Shown here piece by piece: positions 21,758 through 44,316 of a stretch of 50,515 nt of DNA (position 1 is the first letter of the stretch; each line of letters begins with the position of its first letter). The DNA comes from Thermodesulfobacteriota bacterium (GTDB lineage Bacteria > Desulfobacterota > Desulfobulbia > Desulfobulbales > SURF-16): contig JBDLIE010000019.1 in the NCBI GenBank assembly GCA_039715015.1, positions 1-50,515 of the forward strand, in the 5' to 3' direction. The notes beneath the pieces were generated by a model. The model made no database searches, had not been told where the DNA came from, and worked only from the letters and a program-made list of their open reading frames with translations. Position numbers and translations under genes: made by a program.

Positions 21758-23425
21758 ATGGTAAGAAATGCTCTCAAACGGTTAGTTTATTCATTAAAGC
21801 CTCTTAATACAGAGGAGGATATTCATCTTCGCAGGCAGCTGCTCTGGGTCCTCTTTTTCAGGGTCGTACTTCTCACCTTTCTCTTGGGGATAATTGTTTT
21901 TTTCCAGTATAAAGATGGGACAGATTATCAGATTATCCCCATCCAGCTGGTGGGTCTTTTCGTTGGCGGCGTCTACCTCCTCACCATTGGCTCCGCTTTT
22001 CTTATAAGGTTTGTCCCCTACTTCAAACCCTTTACATTCATTCAGATATCCCTTGATGTGCTACTCACCTCCATTCTGGTTTTCTTTAGTGGAGGTAGCC
22101 AATCCTTTCTTATAATTATCTATTTCTTCCCCATAATCAGCGGCGCTACACTTCTCCTGCGCCGTGGCTCCTTATTTATGGCGGCCCAGGCCTCATTGAT
22201 GTATGGGGCTGTTTTGTGGATTGAATATAGCGGGACCATGGCTGTCTATTTCCCATCTAGCACCCTTGACGATTTCATGATGACTTTGCCCATTTTTTCT
22301 ATTTCCGGGCTCTCCTTTTTCCTCACCGCCTTTCTCAGCTCGTTCATGGCTGAACGCCTCAAAATCACGGAAACAGCCCTCTCCCAAACCATTCTTGATC
22401 GCGACAGGCTCGCTGTCCTATACAGGCAAATCTTAGCGGACATTACCACAGGGATCATCACCATCAATGGTCAAAAGATTATTACTTCTTTTAATCACGC
22501 CGCTGAAAAAATAAGCGGTTTCTCCTCACAAGAAGCTGTGGGCAAATCTTTGGCGGAGCTGATGCCGGAGATTGTGGCCGACCTTCGCGGCGAAATAAGA
22601 CCCTTGGCGACTTTAAGGCGAAAAGATGGAGAAAAGATCCCGGTGGGCTACTCATGGACGCCGCTGAACATGCCTGGGGAAAAAGAAGATTACCGAGTCT
22701 ATACCATGCAGGACTTGAGTCTGATCAAGAAAATGGAATACCAGGTACGCCAGGCGGAAAAAATGGCTGCCATTGGCCAAATGGCTGCAGGCATAGCCCA
22801 TGAATTCAGGAATCCTCTGGCCGCAATGAGCGGTGCCGCCCAAATTTTAGAAAAGGATTTCGTCTCCGACCCTACCACCCAGGCCTTAATGAATATCATT
22901 GTCAGAGAGAGTGACAAGCTGGAGGCAACTATCCACGGTTTTCTCGATTATTCCAGGCCTATGGAGCCGGTTATGGACTGGTTTTCGTTGAAGAGTCTAA
23001 CTGAGGAGGCCATCAGTATGGCTCACAATGATCCTCACTGGCATGATGTTGAAATCCATATCAACATTCCCGACGCCTTGGATTGCTGGGCAGATGCCAA
23101 TCAGATGCGCCAAGTGCTGACCAATCTCATCACTAACGCTGTCCATGCCATGGTTCACGTAGAAAAACCGCTCCTCATCATTGCGGCGCAGGAAGAAGAT
23201 CATGATGGAAAGCCACGGCATGTTATAGAAATAAGCGATAATGGCCCTGGCATCCCAGCTCCACTCCTTGGCCAGATCTTTGACCCTTTTTTCACCACTC
23301 AAGAAAGTGGAACAGGCCTGGGGCTATCCATTGTTAACCAGATCATTGCAAGCCATGAGGGCACTCTGAAAGTCAACTCAGATACATCTGGCACCTCTTT
23401 TGCTATCTCCCTGCCCCTGCAATAG
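21758..23425 (+). CDS. pilS: Membrane PAS sensor histidine kinase, PilS-like
   Basis: About six TM helices, PAS region, H-box IAHEFRNPL, N-box NLITNA, G-boxes DNGPG and GTGLGL. Confidence 0.78.
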   Translation: MVRNALKRLVYSLKPLNTEEDIHLRRQLLWVLFFRVVLLTFLLGIIVFFQYKDGTDYQIIPIQLVGLFVGGVYLLTIGSAFLIRFVPYFKPFTFIQISLDVLLTSILVFFSGGSQSFLIIIYFFPIISGATLLLRRGSLFMAAQASLMYGAVLWIEYSGTMAVYFPSSTLDDFMMTLPIFSISGLSFFLTAFLSSFMAERLKITETALSQTILDRDRLAVLYRQILADITTGIITINGQKIITSFNHAAEKISGFSSQEAVGKSLAELMPEIVADLRGEIRPLATLRRKDGEKIPVGYSWTPLNMPGEKEDYRVYTMQDLSLIKKMEYQVRQAEKMAAIGQMAAGIAHEFRNPLAAMSGAAQILEKDFVSDPTTQALMNIIVRESDKLEATIHGFLDYSRPMEPVMDWFSLKSLTEEAISMAHNDPHWHDVEIHINIPDALDCWADANQMRQVLTNLITNAVHAMVHVEKPLLIIAAQEEDHDGKPRHVIEISDNGPGIPAPLLGQIFDPFFTTQESGTGLGLSIVNQIIASHEGTLKVNSDTSGTSFAISLPLQ

Positions 23426-37511: not shown

Positions 37512-37805
37512 CTAGCTATAAATAAAAACATAGGTGTCGTCGTTAATACTTATCCGGTAACGACCTCCATGATTTTTGCCATAAATTTCCCAGGCAGGGC
37601 CATCCGTAATTTCACATTTACAACAGGACGGTGAAAATTTCCCGGTGGTCTTATCAAACCAGGACATCAGCATGGGGTCTCCGCCATCACGGCTGGCAAT
37701 GGCATATGCCAGGTCTCGGGCGAGATCCCAGTCAAGATCCGCTCCCTCAACAGAAAGTGTGATTTTTTTCATACCTGGCCCGTTTATGGGAATAATTTCC
37801 GCCAT
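37512..37805 (-). CDS. AF1514-family (DUF5619-like) small protein
   Basis: Recalled family pattern: PMLMSWFD..G.FSP.CC....PAWEIYG.NHGG..ISIN; RBS GGAGGAG. Confidence 0.7.
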   Translation of the reverse strand: MAEIIPINGPGMKKITLSVEGADLDWDLARDLAYAIASRDGGDPMLMSWFDKTTGKFSPSCCKCEITDGPAWEIYGKNHGGRYRISINDDTYVFIYS

Positions 37806-38119: not shown

Positions 38120-38223
38120 CAAGATTAAATATTATGAAGAGAAGCAAGAATCTGCCAGACAGAAAAGGAGGTTGATCAAAAGAACATCTTGATCATTTGA
38201 GCCTGGCAGATTCTTAACATTTA

Positions 38224-39549
38224 TTACTCATAGACATCACATTCAGGACCATCACACTCGACATTGGCAACAAGATAACTGCTCTCGAAACCGGCGTTGC
38301 GCAGCTCGGTGCTGGCCATCTCAGCCCTGGCCCCAGTGGTACAATGGACCACAATTTCTTTACCCTTAGGAAGAGAACCAATCTTGCCTTGGAGATCATC
38401 CAGGGGAATGTGACGGGCATTAGCAAATTTGCCTTCTGCAGCCTCATCCACAGTACGAACATCAAGAATGAGTTTATCTTTCGATCCTTTGGAAACTTTC
38501 ATAAAATCAGCGATACTGATCTCATTCTTGCCAAGCTTACGTTTCCAGTTAATCTCATCTGGGGTAGCACCGGTCTCAATGGGCTTACCGGCCTTTTTCC
38601 AGGCCGTAAAACTAACACCGGAAATGGAGCCTTTTTTCTTGCCCCAGCCTTTAACGATTTTATAGGCCTTTTGAGGGGCATTTCCGTTGCCATAGACGAC
38701 AATGGGCGCAACCTTGCTGGATGGGAAATCATCCTCGGCATACTCAAGATCTGCCAGAGGAATATTATAGGCCCGTGGAATATGGCCTGATTCGTATTCT
38801 TTCTTTGAGCGCAGATCAACAAGAACGATATTGCCCTTGGTGACAAAATTCTCACTTGCTGTCACATAGTTACCCGCCTTTTTCCAGCCGGGGACACCTG
38901 CAAGCATAACTTTAACATTGGTATATCCTAATTTGACCGCCTGACCGGCGTTCTTTGTTGACATACCTCAGGTGGGGCCTCCGCAGTAAAAGACGAGCTG
39001 GATATCCTTATTTTTAGGAAGAAGAGAAGCGCCCTTCTTCTTCATGGCAGGAACAGGAATGCTGATGGAGCCAGGAATGGTTCCTTCATGGAAACGCTTG
39101 CCGGGACGGGCATCAACAAGAACGTATTTCTTGCCTGATGCCATCAAAGCAGCAAGCTCACCGGGCTTCATCTCAGAGGTGCCCTTAGGCAGCTTAGCCA
39201 GTTTCGGCTTGATAACCGTAGCGACACGGTCCTTTCCTTTGCCTTTGAATTCAATAATCGCGGCATGGCCCTTGACAGCGTGCTTTACGCCTTTGGTGCT
39301 GTCATCGAACTTGACCATCATGGTCTTGGCCTTCTTTCCCTTTCCTACAGAAATAGAAATGGTTTTGGCCTTATTGGACTTGCCGAGAATTTTTCCCTTG
39401 AGAACGTTCTGCTTCTTCTTGGCTTCGGCCTTTGCAGCGGGAGCCGCTTGGTTTCCGGCCTGGACCGGCTCGTGATTAACGCAACCGGCGACCAATATTG
39501 CTGCACCACAGGCTAGTGGTAGCAGGCGTTTAAGAATTTTCTGATTCAT
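38224..39549 (-). CDS. Selenocysteine-containing triple-rhodanese lipoprotein (441 aa; Sec194 from in-frame TGA at 38968-38970)
   Basis: The two track ORFs are in one frame separated by TGA GGT. Read-through restores a full rhodanese domain (VDARP..GTIPGSISIP..LVFYCGGPT-U-GMS..AVKLGYTNVKVMLAGVPGWKKAG). U aligns with the second Cys of FYCKGIRC in 43591..44316. A SECIS-like hairpin follows. Lipobox VAGC at Cys23. Confidence 0.9.
38920..38967 (-). promoter_or_regulatory. Bacterial SECIS-like element
   Basis: Directly after UGA: lower stem GGUAUGUC/GAUAUACC (8 bp, one G-U); upper stem CGCC/GGCG closing a GGUCA loop that starts with G and begins 21 nt after the UGA. Confidence 0.8.
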
Positions 39550-39622
39550 GGCAACTCCTTAAAAAAAGTGAAGAGATTAACAGCTTATGATAGCGCCTCT
39601 TTTGCTTAACAACTTTTAATGG

Positions 39623-39638
39623 AGCAATCTATATGCCA
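39623..39638 (-). promoter_or_regulatory. Sigma54 (-24/-12) promoter of the rhodanese selenoprotein gene
   Basis: Minus strand TGGCATATAGATTGCT matches TGGCAY-N5-TTGCW with GG-N10-GC spacing; 73 nt upstream of the ATG, which has RBS AAGGAG. Confidence 0.85.
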
Positions 39639-39864: not shown

Positions 39865-42168
39865 ATGAACCTACGATATCTCATCTTTCTGACCATCACT
39901 GCCCTTGGCCTGCTTCCCTTGGCAGTGCTTCTCATTACGAGTTTTCCCCAAGCCATGGTGCAGTTGGATGACGCGGCCCGTCAGAAAACGGTTGCCCTGA
40001 CCCAGAACCGCTATACAAAGCTTAATGCCAAGGTTAAATGCCTCAAAAAGTCTATTAACAGGTTGGCAGCAGTACCAGTCAGTGAGGACATCATTGTTCA
40101 TGCCGATGAAGATCATCAAAATCGTATGGAACTCCTCATCGGCGACTGGTTTGCGGAAGATCTCCAGATTGATGACGTTCATTTTATTGATATTGTCGGC
40201 AATGAAACTTTCCGGATGACAAGGGGCCCGCAAGAGCTTGTAAAAATTGGCGCCAAGAATCTCCGAACCCGTGAACAGGATGCCTCCTTTCTCCATGGCC
40301 TTCAACTCTCTCCACAGGAGGTATTTGTCGGCATTGCCAACCAGACTGAGGGCAGCCTGGGAACTGAAGAACAATATGTTCTTTATATGGTAACACCCGT
40401 GGGAAGAGGTATTGATGAAATCATGGGCCTGGCTGTTATCCAGGTTGATCTCAAAACTTTTTTGCAGGATTTCAGTGACTCTCTGTGGCTTCTGACCAAC
40501 CGCCAGGTACTTTACGCACCGGCCAACATCCCGCCCTACACCCCGCCAACGGCTATTGCTGAAGATTTCAGTCAACCAGTTGATATCTCCATCTCTGACT
40601 CTACCTCCGGCAATCAAGTGGCGTGGCTCCCCCTCTCTTTTAACCCGGACCACCTCCCCCTGCTGTGGATTGCCAGCCCTATAGATCAATCAGCCACCCT
40701 GGCCTGGAAAACTGCCATCACCCGGAATATCTTTCTTATTGTCACCATCACCGGCCTGATGGTCTTCGGCATTGCTCATTTCATTGCCGGCCGCCTGGCT
40801 ACTATTAAAAACGAGATTGTTAATGGTCTCGACCGCATTTTGAATCATGATGAGCTCGTCCAGTTTTCCTGGAAAGGCCCGCAGGAATTAAAAAATATGG
40901 CTCAAGATCTCACCAGTATGGCCGACCATTATCACGAAATTCAAACGGCCCGTAGCCAGGCCGAAACCGCTCTGCGGGAAAGCGAGGAAAATTTCAGGAA
41001 CCTTACCACCTCAGCCCACGATGCCATCATTATGATGGATCATCATGGCGACATCTCTTTCTGGAACAAGGCAGCAGAGACCTTTTTCGGCTACCAAAGC
41101 GCTGAGGCCGTGGGCCAGCCTATCCACAGCCTCATCAGCCCACGGCGCCCGGAAACAGGGGAAGGTGTTTCTCCTTTAGGCGTGGCCAATGAGGGCTCCC
41201 CTGTCCATGAGATTATTGCCCTTACCGCCACCAAAAAAGACGGCACAGAGATCCAGATGGAACTCTCCCTCTCAGCAGCTTATATCAGCGACCGCTGGCA
41301 TGCTCTGTGGATTGTTCGTGATATCACCGAACGTATCCGTTCAGAGGCTAAAAACAGGGAGCAGCAGAAGCAACTCATCCAGGCCGACAAGATGATCTCC
41401 CTTGGCCTCCTCGTATCAGGTGTGGCCCATGAGATCAATAACCCTAACTCCATTGTCCTGCTCAACACCCCGCTCCTGGCCCGTTCCTGGAATTCTATCC
41501 TGCCCATACTTGACGAGTTCCATGAAGAAAATGGCGAATTTCTTGTGGCCGGTCTTGATTACTCTGATATGCGCGCCCAGATCCCAAAGATATGTGATGA
41601 GATTGACGACAGCAGCCAACGCATCAAACAGATTGTTATGGACCTCAAGGACTATGCCCGCCAGGATAGTACCCCCCATTTTGACCAGATCGACCTCAAC
41701 TCCGTTGTAGAGGCTGCCAGCCGCCTTACCTTAAATAAAATTAAAAATGCCACTAATCATTTCAGCACCAAACTTGAAAAAATACCCGCCGTTTTCGGCA
41801 ACCGCCAACGCCTGGAGCAGGTAGTCATTAACCTCATCCAAAACAGCTGCGAGGCCCTGAGCGGTCCTTCAAAGGGCATCACCATCACCTCCTTTTTTGA
41901 CAAAAAGGAAAACCTGGTCAAACTCTCTGTCATTGACGAAGGGAGCGGCATCGACCCCCAGTCCATCACCAAAGTAACTGATCCTTTTTACACCTCAAAA
42001 AGGACCATGGGCGGCACAGGCCTTGGGCTTTCCGTGTCAGCGGGTATTATCAAGGAGCATGACGCAACTATTAAGTTTCAAAGTAATTTCGGCCAAGGTA
42101 CCACGGTAATTCTTGCCTTTAAACCAGCCGACAATTCAGCCCCGATTAAGGGTAGACACCATGACTAA
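39865..42168 (+). CDS. Sensor histidine kinase with extracytoplasmic (Cache-like) domain and PAS domain
   Basis: Two TM helices flank a large periplasmic region; PAS (HDAIIMMD..WNKAAE..RDITE); H-box AHEINNP; N-box NLIQNS; GTGLGL. Confidence 0.9.
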   Translation: MNLRYLIFLTITALGLLPLAVLLITSFPQAMVQLDDAARQKTVALTQNRYTKLNAKVKCLKKSINRLAAVPVSEDIIVHADEDHQNRMELLIGDWFAEDLQIDDVHFIDIVGNETFRMTRGPQELVKIGAKNLRTREQDASFLHGLQLSPQEVFVGIANQTEGSLGTEEQYVLYMVTPVGRGIDEIMGLAVIQVDLKTFLQDFSDSLWLLTNRQVLYAPANIPPYTPPTAIAEDFSQPVDISISDSTSGNQVAWLPLSFNPDHLPLLWIASPIDQSATLAWKTAITRNIFLIVTITGLMVFGIAHFIAGRLATIKNEIVNGLDRILNHDELVQFSWKGPQELKNMAQDLTSMADHYHEIQTARSQAETALRESEENFRNLTTSAHDAIIMMDHHGDISFWNKAAETFFGYQSAEAVGQPIHSLISPRRPETGEGVSPLGVANEGSPVHEIIALTATKKDGTEIQMELSLSAAYISDRWHALWIVRDITERIRSEAKNREQQKQLIQADKMISLGLLVSGVAHEINNPNSIVLLNTPLLARSWNSILPILDEFHEENGEFLVAGLDYSDMRAQIPKICDEIDDSSQRIKQIVMDLKDYARQDSTPHFDQIDLNSVVEAASRLTLNKIKNATNHFSTKLEKIPAVFGNRQRLEQVVINLIQNSCEALSGPSKGITITSFFDKKENLVKLSVIDEGSGIDPQSITKVTDPFYTSKRTMGGTGLGLSVSAGIIKEHDATIKFQSNFGQGTTVILAFKPADNSAPIKGRHHD

Positions 42169-43594
42169 AAACCAATACCCTCTCCTTCCCGTTCTTCTTG
42201 TTGATGACGAGGAGGCATGGCTGCACAGCTTCAGCCTTACCCTACGTTCTGCAGGAATCAATAACATTATTACCTGTCAGGACAGTCGGGAGGTAATGGA
42301 TATCCTCGCCAAACAAACCATTTCGGTGATGGTGCTTGATCTCACCATGCCGTATATCAATGGCGCTGAAATTCTTATCAAGGCAGTTGAGGAATTCCCC
42401 CATATCCCGGTGATTATCATCAGCGGCCTTGATCAGGTTGAAACAGCAGTAAACTGCATCAAGCAAGGCGCCTTTGATTATTTCACTAAAGTTTCAGAAG
42501 AGAACAGACTTGTCTCCGGAGTGGACAGGGCCATTGAGGTGGGCAAATTACGCCGGGAAAATTTATCGTTAAAAGAACATTTCCTTGAAGACCGCCTTGA
42601 TTATCCCGACGCCTTTGCACACATCATTACCCACAACAAGAAAATGCGGGCTCTGTTTCAGTATATGGAGGCCATTGCCACCAGCTGCGAACCTGTTCTC
42701 ATCACCGGCGAAACCGGGGTGGGCAAGGAGCTTTTTGCCAAGGCCCTCCACAAGCTCTGCCACGGCGACGCCCCTTTTGTGGTGGCTAATGCCGCAGGTC
42801 TTGATGACACCATGTTCGCCGACACCCTTTTTGGCCACCGTAAAGGAGCCTTCACCGGTGCAGATAGCGCCCGGGACGGTCTGATCAAAAAGGCATCCGG
42901 GGGAACCCTCTTTCTTGACGAGATCGGCGATCTCTCCCAATCATCTCAGGTCAAATTGCTCCGCCTGATTCAGGAAAGAGAATATTTCCAGCTAGGCAGC
43001 GATCTCGCCAGAAAGACCGATGCCCGGATGATCTTTGCCACCCACCGCGACCTTGACACCCTCCAAAAAGAGGGGGATTTTCGGACAGATCTCTTTTTTC
43101 GTCTCCGAGCCCATCATATCCACATCCCTCCTTTGCGTGAACGCCTTGACGATATCGCCCTGCTCTTTGACTTTTTCCTCACTAAGGGAGCTAAGAAACT
43201 ATCGAAGAAAAAGCCGGCCTATCCTAAGGAACTCACCCTGCTCCTCGCCACCTATAATTATCCGGGCAATATTAGGGAACTTGACCATATTATTTTCGAT
43301 GCCTTGAGTCACCATAAGGAAAAGATGCTTTCCATGGAGAGCTTTAAAAAGTATTTTCAGAGTCAAACTACTCCGACTGAAAACAGCATCAACAATACGT
43401 TACTTAGCAGTGAAGATAGCACCCCCTTTCGTGTCCTTGGGCAACTGCCCACCCTTAAAGAATCAAGCAACCTGCTAATCCAGGAAGCCTTGCATCGTTC
43501 CGGCGGCAATCAGGCTATTGCCGCTGATATGCTGGGTGTTACCAGGCAGGCCCTCAACTGGCGCCTTAAAAAGTCGGAAAAGGAGACCCCATGA
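42161..43594 (+). CDS. Sigma54-dependent (NtrC-family) response regulator (start reassigned to MTKNQ)
   Basis: REC LLVDDE and LDLTMP; GETGVGKE; intact GAFTGA; PGNIREL; Fis-type HTH GNQAIAADMLGVTRQAL; ATG overlaps the kinase end. Confidence 0.93.
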   Translation: MTKNQYPLLPVLLVDDEEAWLHSFSLTLRSAGINNIITCQDSREVMDILAKQTISVMVLDLTMPYINGAEILIKAVEEFPHIPVIIISGLDQVETAVNCIKQGAFDYFTKVSEENRLVSGVDRAIEVGKLRRENLSLKEHFLEDRLDYPDAFAHIITHNKKMRALFQYMEAIATSCEPVLITGETGVGKELFAKALHKLCHGDAPFVVANAAGLDDTMFADTLFGHRKGAFTGADSARDGLIKKASGGTLFLDEIGDLSQSSQVKLLRLIQEREYFQLGSDLARKTDARMIFATHRDLDTLQKEGDFRTDLFFRLRAHHIHIPPLRERLDDIALLFDFFLTKGAKKLSKKKPAYPKELTLLLATYNYPGNIRELDHIIFDALSHHKEKMLSMESFKKYFQSQTTPTENSINNTLLSSEDSTPFRVLGQLPTLKESSNLLIQEALHRSGGNQAIAADMLGVTRQALNWRLKKSEKETP

Positions 43595-44316
43595 AGTCCA
43601 GATTGTCCTTATGCTTCACCGTGACAGCCGTCCTCCTCTGTGTTTTGGTTTCTTTTGCCCAGGCGGAACGCTTTGAAACCATCAGCACAGACGAGTTGCT
43701 TGCCTTAAGAAAAAGCAATGCCCCTTTCCTGCTTATCAACGCCCTCAGCCCCATCGAATACAATCAAGAGGCAATAAGTGGCTCCGTGAATATCCCGGCA
43801 AGCCATATGCGGACCGACCACCCACTCCTTCCCCAGGACAAATCCACCTTGCTGGTCTTCTACTGTAAGGGCATACGCTGCACCAAGAGCCGCCGGGCAG
43901 CCCGTAAAGCCATGGAGTTCGGTTATCAGCATGTAAAAATCTACACAGATGGACTACCGGGCTGGAAACGCCGTAACCTGCAGATAACTCATTCCACATC
44001 CTATCCAGACATCATCCCTCAAGTCCTTGAGCCTCTCACTGTCTATCAAAAAATGGAGTCTGCTATCCTCCTCGATATCCGTGGTGAGGAAGTCAGCCAG
44101 GTGGGAGAAATTAATAAAGCGCTGAAAATCCCCCTCGATGATCTTGATCGCTACTATCAGAAATTGCCCCGGGACAAGAGCATTATCATTATTGATCATG
44201 CTGAAAAGCAGTCCCCTATTTGCTCCCGTTTTCTATATAAAATGGGCTACCGTGATCTTGCCATTTTAAAAGGTGGCATGATTAACTGGGTTCGAGCCGG
44301 TCTACCCATAGAGTAA
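43591..44316 (+). CDS. Secreted tandem rhodanese-domain protein (CxxxxC loop)
   Basis: Signal peptide ending AQA; domain 1 ISGSVNIP..LVFYCKGIRCTKS..GLPGW; domain 2 has Asp at the catalytic position (IIIIDHAEKQS); ATGA overlap with the regulator. Confidence 0.88.
   Translation: MKSRLSLCFTVTAVLLCVLVSFAQAERFETISTDELLALRKSNAPFLLINALSPIEYNQEAISGSVNIPASHMRTDHPLLPQDKSTLLVFYCKGIRCTKSRRAARKAMEFGYQHVKIYTDGLPGWKRRNLQITHSTSYPDIIPQVLEPLTVYQKMESAILLDIRGEEVSQVGEINKALKIPLDDLDRYYQKLPRDKSIIIIDHAEKQSPICSRFLYKMGYRDLAILKGGMINWVRAGLPIE

Follow-up and report, generated by a model that had tools for sequence, protein, structure and literature searches.

Locus and Reading Frame

Does a TGA codon that divides a rhodanese gene into two open reading frames (ORFs) end translation, or is it read as selenocysteine (Sec), and what would such a residue do in a protein of this kind? 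These questions are raised by a minus-strand locus at positions 38224..39549 of a 50,515-nt stretch of DNA from a Thermodesulfobacteriota bacterium of the order Desulfobulbales (assembly GCA_039715015.1, contig JBDLIE010000019.1, positions 1 to 50,515), which in its full length is referred to here as the window. An earlier note, made from the letters of the window, had proposed that the two ORFs are one hidden selenoprotein gene, encoding a lipoprotein with three rhodanese domains. Judging from the reading frame, the codons found in relatives and the gene content of the genome, we hold with very high confidence that the locus is a single gene for an exported triple-rhodanese protein with Sec at codon 194, the internal stop almost certainly being read as Sec.

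The two table-11 ORFs, of 193 amino acids (aa; 38968-39549) and 246 aa (38224-38964), share one frame, and translation of the single in-frame TGA (38968..38970) as Sec (U) yields one product of 441 residues with U at position 194, the 441 codons being followed by a TAA stop. Around the TGA the minus strand reads ...TTT TAC TGC GGA GGC CCC ACC TGA GGT ATG TCA..., and the UGA has an open, homologous frame on either side. The Pfam family PF00581 matched the full product with 133.9 bits against a cut-off of 22.2, in three rhodanese stretches, of which the best (residues 129-225) spans the TGA. The stop lies, as the earlier note had placed it, inside the active-site loop of the first rhodanese domain, C189-G-G-P-T-U194 (codon of Cys189, the canonical catalytic cysteine of this domain, at 38983..38985), so that a true stop would cut that domain, and the second rhodanese half that the note had read beyond the TGA, AVKLGYTNVKVMLAGVPGWKKAG, is present in the 441-residue product. 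So are the other strings that it quoted: FYCGGPTU, VVYGNG, VHCTTGAR, the lipobox LVAGC and the peptide DIQLVFYCGGPTUGMSTK. The shared frame, the rhodanese domain extending across the TGA and the orthologues that read through with one TGA all support the view that the two ORFs are one gene. Elsewhere in the window TGA serves as an ordinary stop, ending 8 of the 24 ORFs of at least 250 aa, and it is not reassigned in this organism.

The note's expectation that gene callers would split such a gene was borne out by the 246-aa piece in the window and by 16 public pieces of 245-247 aa. These 17 short public entries, the window's own among them, begin at a Met two codons past the Sec position, which indicates that public annotation splits the Sec forms, and some of them bear the name "rhodanese" only. 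Public records in this way file the window gene, with 16 or more counterparts, as truncated "rhodanese" proteins, and these are consequently missed in selenoproteome counts and metabolic models of the Desulfobulbales, an order that comprises relatives of cable bacteria and sulfur disproportionators.

Selenocysteine Machinery and the TGA Codon in Relatives

The assembly is 99.99% complete and encodes SelA (618 bits), SelB (373 bits) and SelD (361 bits), together with a tRNA-Sec (70 bits) that ARAGORN reported as tRNA-SeC with anticodon tca. All four models (selA, selB, selD and tRNA-Sec) scored above their curated cut-offs, and the selD of the genome itself carries one in-frame TGA. The components that the earlier note had listed as a check (selA, selB, selC and selD) thus form a complete machinery here.

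The codon at position 194 was then compared among relatives. A read-through search with the 441-aa protein covered 61 related genomes and gave matches in 57. Nineteen of the 20 best orthologous loci have TGA and the remaining one has TGT, the surrounding context, CGG-x-T-[U/C]-GMS, being invariant. Among 80 loci from named genomes we found TGA in 33, TGC in 34 and TGT in 10, with three unresolved; TGA is therefore present in 33 of the 77 resolved loci, and Cys codons are present in the other 44, in keeping with the prediction that homologues would carry either Cys or TGA at this column. All 99 full-length public homologues (at least 400 aa) have Cys there, as do all 65 rows of our alignment, which comprises 64 homologues and the query, whose U was stored as C. 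The same TGA is retained across independent assemblies down to approximately 36% protein identity, with both halves of the protein conserved. BLASTP also places the second Cys of FYCKGIRC, in a local paralogue, at the TGA position, as the note had proposed. Both forms occur in cultured organisms, namely the Sec form in Hydrosulfovibrio ferrireducens CB1MN (locus L145) and the Cys form in Desulfobulbus elongatus DSM 2908 and D. rhabdoformis DSM 8777; these carriers offer a natural Sec/Cys comparison.

A SECIS-Like Hairpin Tracks the TGA

A nested RNA fold resembling a selenocysteine insertion sequence (SECIS) lies downstream of the TGA at 38920..38967 on the minus strand. Its core hairpin (38937-38951) has a G+C stem of 4-5 bp and a 5-nt apical loop, GGUCA (38942-38946), 21 nt past the TGA, with a minimum free energy (MFE) of -8.4 kcal/mol. 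The bacterial SECIS model, as set out in PMC13188914, has an apical loop of 3-9 nt with a G within its first two nucleotides, and a stem of 4-16 bp located 16-37 nt from the UGA with an MFE of at most -7.5 kcal/mol; the window hairpin agrees with this published outline in all four respects (loop, G, stem/spacing and MFE).

Among 19 Sec orthologues, 95% of cells pair, versus 22-57% when the partner strand is slid, and neither the G nor the U of the loop varies. Compensatory changes were found in three of the five pairs, in one case a change of GCC to GCA together with CTG to CTT, both of them synonymous. When the named loci were scored for the hairpin (presence being defined as at least four of the five pairs plus the GU loop), it was present in 33 of 33 Sec forms versus 4 of 44 Cys forms. 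The hairpin that the earlier note saw adjoining the TGA is therefore real, and it tracks the TGA among these loci. One Cys form (L109, TGC) retains a complete SECIS-type hairpin with a GGUCU loop, and three others (L104, L111, and L112) retain most of it; these four may be recent Sec-to-Cys conversions.

Protein Architecture

The order of domains is as the earlier note had described it: signal peptide with lipobox, Lys-rich beta domain, Sec rhodanese, Cys-less rhodanese and Cys rhodanese. An AlphaFold model built from 65 sequences had a pLDDT of 91.3 and a pTM of 0.82. Lipoboxes follow the pattern [LVI][ASTVI][GAS]C, and by eye the V-A-G-C23 that follows a hydrophobic stretch fits this pattern, placing a putative signal peptide with lipobox L-V-A-G-C at residues 1-23 (39481..39549). 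Hydrophobic N-termini occur throughout the family, with Cys at the lipobox column in 25 of the 65 aligned sequences. The description of the product as a lipoprotein therefore stands in part: the window protein does have a lipobox, but many family members carry an ordinary signal peptide instead. Because the lipobox Cys is found in only some of them, we describe the protein as exported and, here, probably lipid-anchored.

Residues 49-115 (39205..39405) form a Lys-rich, five-stranded OB-fold domain in AlphaFold2 models. Folded alone it had a pLDDT of 81, with matches to SSB and PriB at Z about 8, a value in the range common for the search tool, and to the periplasmic chaperones CusF/SilF at a TM-score of 0.70. 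In the Pfam search of this domain no family exceeded its cut-off, a sub-threshold match to BipA_C being obtained in 17 of 20 members, and its alignment showed no conserved metal-site residues. We treat the OB domain as a fold assignment from modeling and nothing further.

The three rhodanese domains differ in their loops, the catalytic Cys at the loop start being found in domains 1 and 3 (Cys189 and Cys403). Domain 1 (residues 129-225, 38875..39165) has a Cys/Sec pair, as Sec194 sits five residues past Cys189. Domain 2 (38593..38841) has the Cys-less loop VVYGNGNAP and is, to judge from this loop, inactive. Domain 3 (38272..38484) has a classical loop, H-C403-T-T-G-A-R408, and its closest profile matches among solved structures were persulfide-reductase rhodanese domains (3nta, E 8e-22), with Sud (1qxn) at E 5.4e-7. 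A C-terminal pair, C432...C437 (38239..38256), lies on a beta-hairpin in the AlphaFold2 model. These residues are widely conserved among the 65 aligned sequences: C189 in 64, C403 in 62, R408 in all 65, C432 in 54 and C437 in 62. A fold search with the whole model returned only multi-rhodanese proteins (1yt8, 6mxv, and YnjE), with low TM-scores. A paralogue on contig 10 of the same genome (34% identity) was considered and set aside, as its domain 1 is free of Cys and it is part of another subfamily.

Relation to Known Selenoproteins and Rhodaneses

The earlier note's remark that rhodanese-like selenoproteins had been predicted before was correct. The catalogue in PMC13188914 gives five rhodanese forms with the Sec motifs UxxS, UxxG, CxU (NF041203), UxxG and, in TsoB (form 5), UxxxxU (NF045694). 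The window protein is an unannotated member of this known class. None of the entries is described there as an exported protein with an OB domain and three rhodanese domains. We found no description of a C-x4-U rhodanese selenoprotein in a full-text literature search, in which TsoB/UxxxxU occurred only in the 2026 review PMC13188914, nor, within the reach of our searches, any bench study of this loop. None of the NCBIfam selenoprotein models reached its cut-off with the window protein: the TsoB model scored 57.2 bits, over residues 138-233 only, versus a cut-off of 805, and the LYCAU model (NF041203, form 3) scored 54.3 bits versus 115.

TsoB is one of the closest known systems. Its loop, FY-U-AGLT-U-VRS, has the same length and register as FY-C-GGPT-U-GMS in the window protein, with 33% BLASTP identity over 94 residues (E 1e-10), and the residue-by-residue alignment of the two loops indicates that the TsoB Sec pair U115/U120 corresponds to C189/U194. 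In both proteins the rhodanese domain faces the periplasm. TsoB differs in that it carries two Sec residues and only one rhodanese domain, with a membrane helix at its N-terminus, a membrane domain of the DsbD type and a thioredoxin (WCTPC) at its C-terminus, whereas the window protein has one Sec and neither a membrane domain nor a thioredoxin part. Genes for TsoB above the cut-off were found in 25 of 401 genomes of the phylum, every such match having two TGA codons; in the window's own genome none exceeded the cut-off.

In forms 1-4 of the catalogue the Sec lies within a PF00581 domain, as it does here. The UxxS descriptor given there for form 1 (WP_010941598.1) fits the U-G-M-S of the window protein and also the U-x-L-S found in most of the C-x4-U loops that were sampled in the phylum. 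It is likely but unproven that the two Sec sites are the same, the comparison being by motif descriptor only. Form 3 (LYCAU) has its Sec at +2, in contrast to +5 in the window protein.

Beyond selenoproteins, YnjE of Escherichia coli (2wlr and 3ipo) and the four-domain sulfurtransferase 1yt8 are multi-rhodanese proteins with a catalytic Cys in some domains only, and were structural matches at Foldseek E-values of 8e-14 to 4e-10. They nevertheless have no Sec, no second loop chalcogen and no OB domain, share 16-18% identity with the window protein and gave whole-model TM-scores of 0.22-0.25. Sud, the periplasmic polysulfide-sulfur transferase of Wolinella succinogenes (1qxn), and the persulfide reductases (3nta and 8a56) have rhodanese domains that ferry sulfane sulfur to or from reductases. 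Their sites have a single Cys, and the window gene differs further in having no adjacent gene for a partner reductase. A precedent for the chemistry is MccSep of Geobacter, a periplasmic multihaem selenoprotein in which, according to PMC13510729, a selenol and a cysteine cleave the S-S bonds of polysulfide by selenol attack. It is described there as a pentahaem cytochrome, a fold unrelated to rhodanese, with electrons supplied by the haems.

Domain 1 alone was used to survey the 401 genomes of the phylum, giving matches in 160; among the matches listed, 54 of 150 had one TGA. The 40 best TGA-bearing matches were retrieved, excluding those from the window's own genome and from one genome of the same family (G000 and G015). 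All 40 had a C-x4-U loop, in most cases reading U-x-x-S, within frames of about 120 to 530 aa, and they came from 11 further families. The C-x4-U loop is thus among the commonest Sec sites in rhodanese domains of the phylum, and it appears to be the most widespread Sec site of the rhodanese selenoprotein class.

Genomic Context and Regulation

A Shine-Dalgarno sequence, AAGGAG (39555..39560, minus strand), was read directly 5 nt before the ATG, and a sigma-54 type -24/-12 promoter, TGGCATATAGATTGCT, lies 74 nt upstream of the ATG (39623..39638, minus strand). Matches to the sigma-54 box occur twice in the window versus 0.21 expected, the other perfect match being TGGCACCTCTTTTGCT at 23389-23404 on the plus strand. 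Of 20 loci, all eight from the same genus and one other retain the box at -89 to -97, and rpoN is present in the genome. Downstream of the gene, a 20-nt inverted repeat (38146..38215, minus strand) begins 9 nt past the stop codon and may mark the transcript end; a scan for intrinsic terminators 3' of the gene called none, and this long inverted repeat is all that is there.

Divergently oriented on the plus strand are genes for a sensor histidine kinase (39865..42168; PAS, HisKA, and HATPase domains, with a long N-terminal part that has no Pfam match), an NtrC-type response regulator with a sigma-54 interaction domain (42113..43594) and an exported two-rhodanese paralogue (43591..44316) whose Cys-form loop, C-K-G-I-R-C, aligns with C189/U194. 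A homologue of the kinase and/or of the sigma-54 regulator was found no more than 3 kb away in 25 of 33 Sec loci and in 14 of 44 Cys loci, counts that refer to short flanks and in which kinase matches can be generic. Taken from sequence features, the most likely arrangement, which is partly shown, is that the gene is transcribed alone from the sigma-54 promoter under the adjacent kinase and NtrC-type activator. Eighteen further gene neighborhoods held no conserved metabolic operon.

Other neighbors recur in particular groups. In three loci of one genus (L049, L051, and L052, in genomes G024, G015, and G017, respectively) genes for methyl-accepting chemotaxis proteins flank the triple-rhodanese gene, and the kinase/regulator pair does not; in two loci a MarR gene lies beside it. 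Directly downstream of the window gene lies one for a 97-aa DUF5619 protein that has a C-C-K-C motif (37512-37805, minus strand); it keeps this position in 6 of 18 further loci.

Proposed Function and Alternative Explanations

On balance we consider it likely that the locus as a whole is explained by a Sec-containing triple-rhodanese protein that handles sulfane sulfur in the periplasm under sigma-54 control. The TGA at codon 194 would be decoded by SelA/SelB/SelC/SelD, guided by the GGUC-loop hairpin 21 nt downstream, and the protein would act on zero-valent (sulfane) sulfur in the form of polysulfide, thiosulfate or persulfides. A selenolate is a better nucleophile and leaving group, and the residue at +5 of the loop contacts the persulfide in rhodaneses, as in the bovine enzyme, so that two orders are conceivable for Sec194: it may accept the sulfur first, or it may resolve a persulfide on Cys189. 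In the former case the Sec194 selenolate would attack S-S bonds and take up sulfur, after which Cys189 would receive the sulfur or resolve the adduct into a Cys-S-Se-Sec bond, releasing sulfide. In the alternative order, Sec194 would resolve the Cys189 persulfide into a selenylsulfide, again liberating sulfide. Sulfur would be relayed onward by Cys403 of domain 3 and possibly by the two C-terminal cysteines. This mechanism is drawn by analogy with characterized proteins, and we offer it tentatively, as plausible yet somewhat short of probable.

The comparison with TsoB gives a concrete, testable idea of the role of the second chalcogen, as fusion of the loop to DsbD and thioredoxin parts in that protein argues for a redox-active, redox-cycled dichalcogenide pair. 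By further analogy, C-x4-U and U-x4-U loops might form a cofactor-free catalytic dichalcogenide center, acting as a periplasmic sulfane-sulfur reductase or relay that cleaves S-S bonds of polysulfide and persulfide and is recycled by electron import of the DsbD/thioredoxin type; in the Desulfobulbales the sigma-54-controlled triple-rhodanese protein would then provide a missing periplasmic step from elemental sulfur or polysulfide to the cytoplasmic Dsr pathway. We regard this extension as speculative and rather unlikely; if true, it would mean that the triple-rhodanese step serves both sulfur disproportionation and sulfide oxidation in these bacteria.

Several observations weigh against the explanation that we favor. 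The stability of the hairpin in the single sequence did not differ significantly from that of shuffled sequences (z of -1.54 and -1.13), and the hairpin overlaps the conserved codons S-A-G-L-A, so that its conservation could be partly at the protein level. The strict sigma-54 motif was found upstream in just 9 of 20 loci and, among the named loci that were evaluated, in 12 of 72. In the loci examined the gene has no psr, sox or dsr operon nearby, and apart from the regulatory genes its neighbors are housekeeping genes (dnaE, gmk and others) or differ between genomes. As single-sequence stability could not be distinguished from that of shuffles, we placed the weight on the comparison among relatives, and the objection that the hairpin is mere conserved coding sequence is answered by its distribution, 33 of 33 Sec forms versus 4 of 44 Cys forms. 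As to function, the neighbors include no sulfur operon, so that the case for a sulfur role is built on domain homology and analogy.

Arsenate reductases occur among rhodanese and Cdc25-fold proteins, which speaks for an alternative in which the protein is a real selenoprotein whose Cys/Sec loop binds or reduces selenite, tellurite or arsenic species in the periplasm for uptake or detoxification. It is also favored by ExtH, a rhodanese-like exported lipoprotein that is encoded beside a porin required for selenite and tellurite reduction in Geobacter (PMC6148476 and PMC5877670), and by the reduction of selenite by MccSep (PMC13510729). Nevertheless, no selenium, tellurium or arsenic genes lie beside the gene in the loci examined, the carriers are, by their record titles, sulfur-cycling Desulfobulbales, and domain 3 most resembles persulfide-carrier domains; we consider a role of this kind improbable. 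Alternatively, the protein might serve chiefly as a periplasmic accessory to a sensor, its loop reporting the polysulfide or redox state to membrane sensors, here the adjacent kinase and in other genera chemoreceptors, instead of carrying bulk sulfur flux. Sensors are the sole recurrent neighbors, 25 of the 33 Sec loci having a kinase and/or sigma-54 regulator at most 3 kb away, chemotaxis genes flanking the gene in one genus and MarR genes adjoining it in two loci, and the long periplasmic part of the kinase contains no known domain. A sigma-54 promoter of its own, however, is more in line with a regulated target than with part of a sensor, and it is the two-rhodanese paralogue, not the triple-rhodanese gene, that is held in the kinase-regulator operon. 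A sensory role as the main function is accordingly, in our judgment, quite improbable.

A further alternative is that the TGA is a true stop, either in a pseudogene or between two genes, one for an OB/half-rhodanese protein of 193 aa and one for a two-rhodanese protein of 246 aa, or that it is an assembly error. The public gene calls, with their fragments of 245-247 aa (17 entries), agree with it; elsewhere in the window TGA is used as an ordinary stop, and no expression data were found for the locus. Against this, the break would fall inside a rhodanese active-site loop, the TGA is kept in independent assemblies to about 36% identity with both halves conserved, other homologues have Cys in its place, the hairpin tracks it and the genome has a complete Sec machinery. 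Together these make a true stop very improbable indeed.

Additional Candidate Selenoproteins in the Genome

Other frames of the same genome also contain putative Sec codons. A second C-x4-U candidate, on contig 1 (L042, 1141-1917, minus strand), is an exported two-rhodanese protein of 258 aa with the loop C-M-G-F-R-U95, and corresponds, as the Sec form, to the Cys-form paralogue at 43591-44316 of the window. Its public relatives are mostly fragments of about 150 aa that resemble post-TGA halves; among the 68 matches of a protein search with it, none was named Geobacter or selenoprotein. On contig 2 (L046, 1504-1917, minus strand) there is an exported single-rhodanese protein of 137 aa with the LYCAU motif, in which Sec is at +2. 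Adding this LYCAU-type gene to the two C-x4-U genes gives at least three rhodanese selenoprotein genes in the genome.

Finally, a thioredoxin-like frame with one in-frame TGA on contig 18 (L045, C18:49527-49844) has its match in the TsoB profile at the C-terminal thioredoxin part, and CcdA/DsbD-like membrane proteins are encoded on contigs 77 and 16. It is possible that these thioredoxin-like and CcdA/DsbD-like proteins act as reductants for periplasmic Cys/Sec centers.

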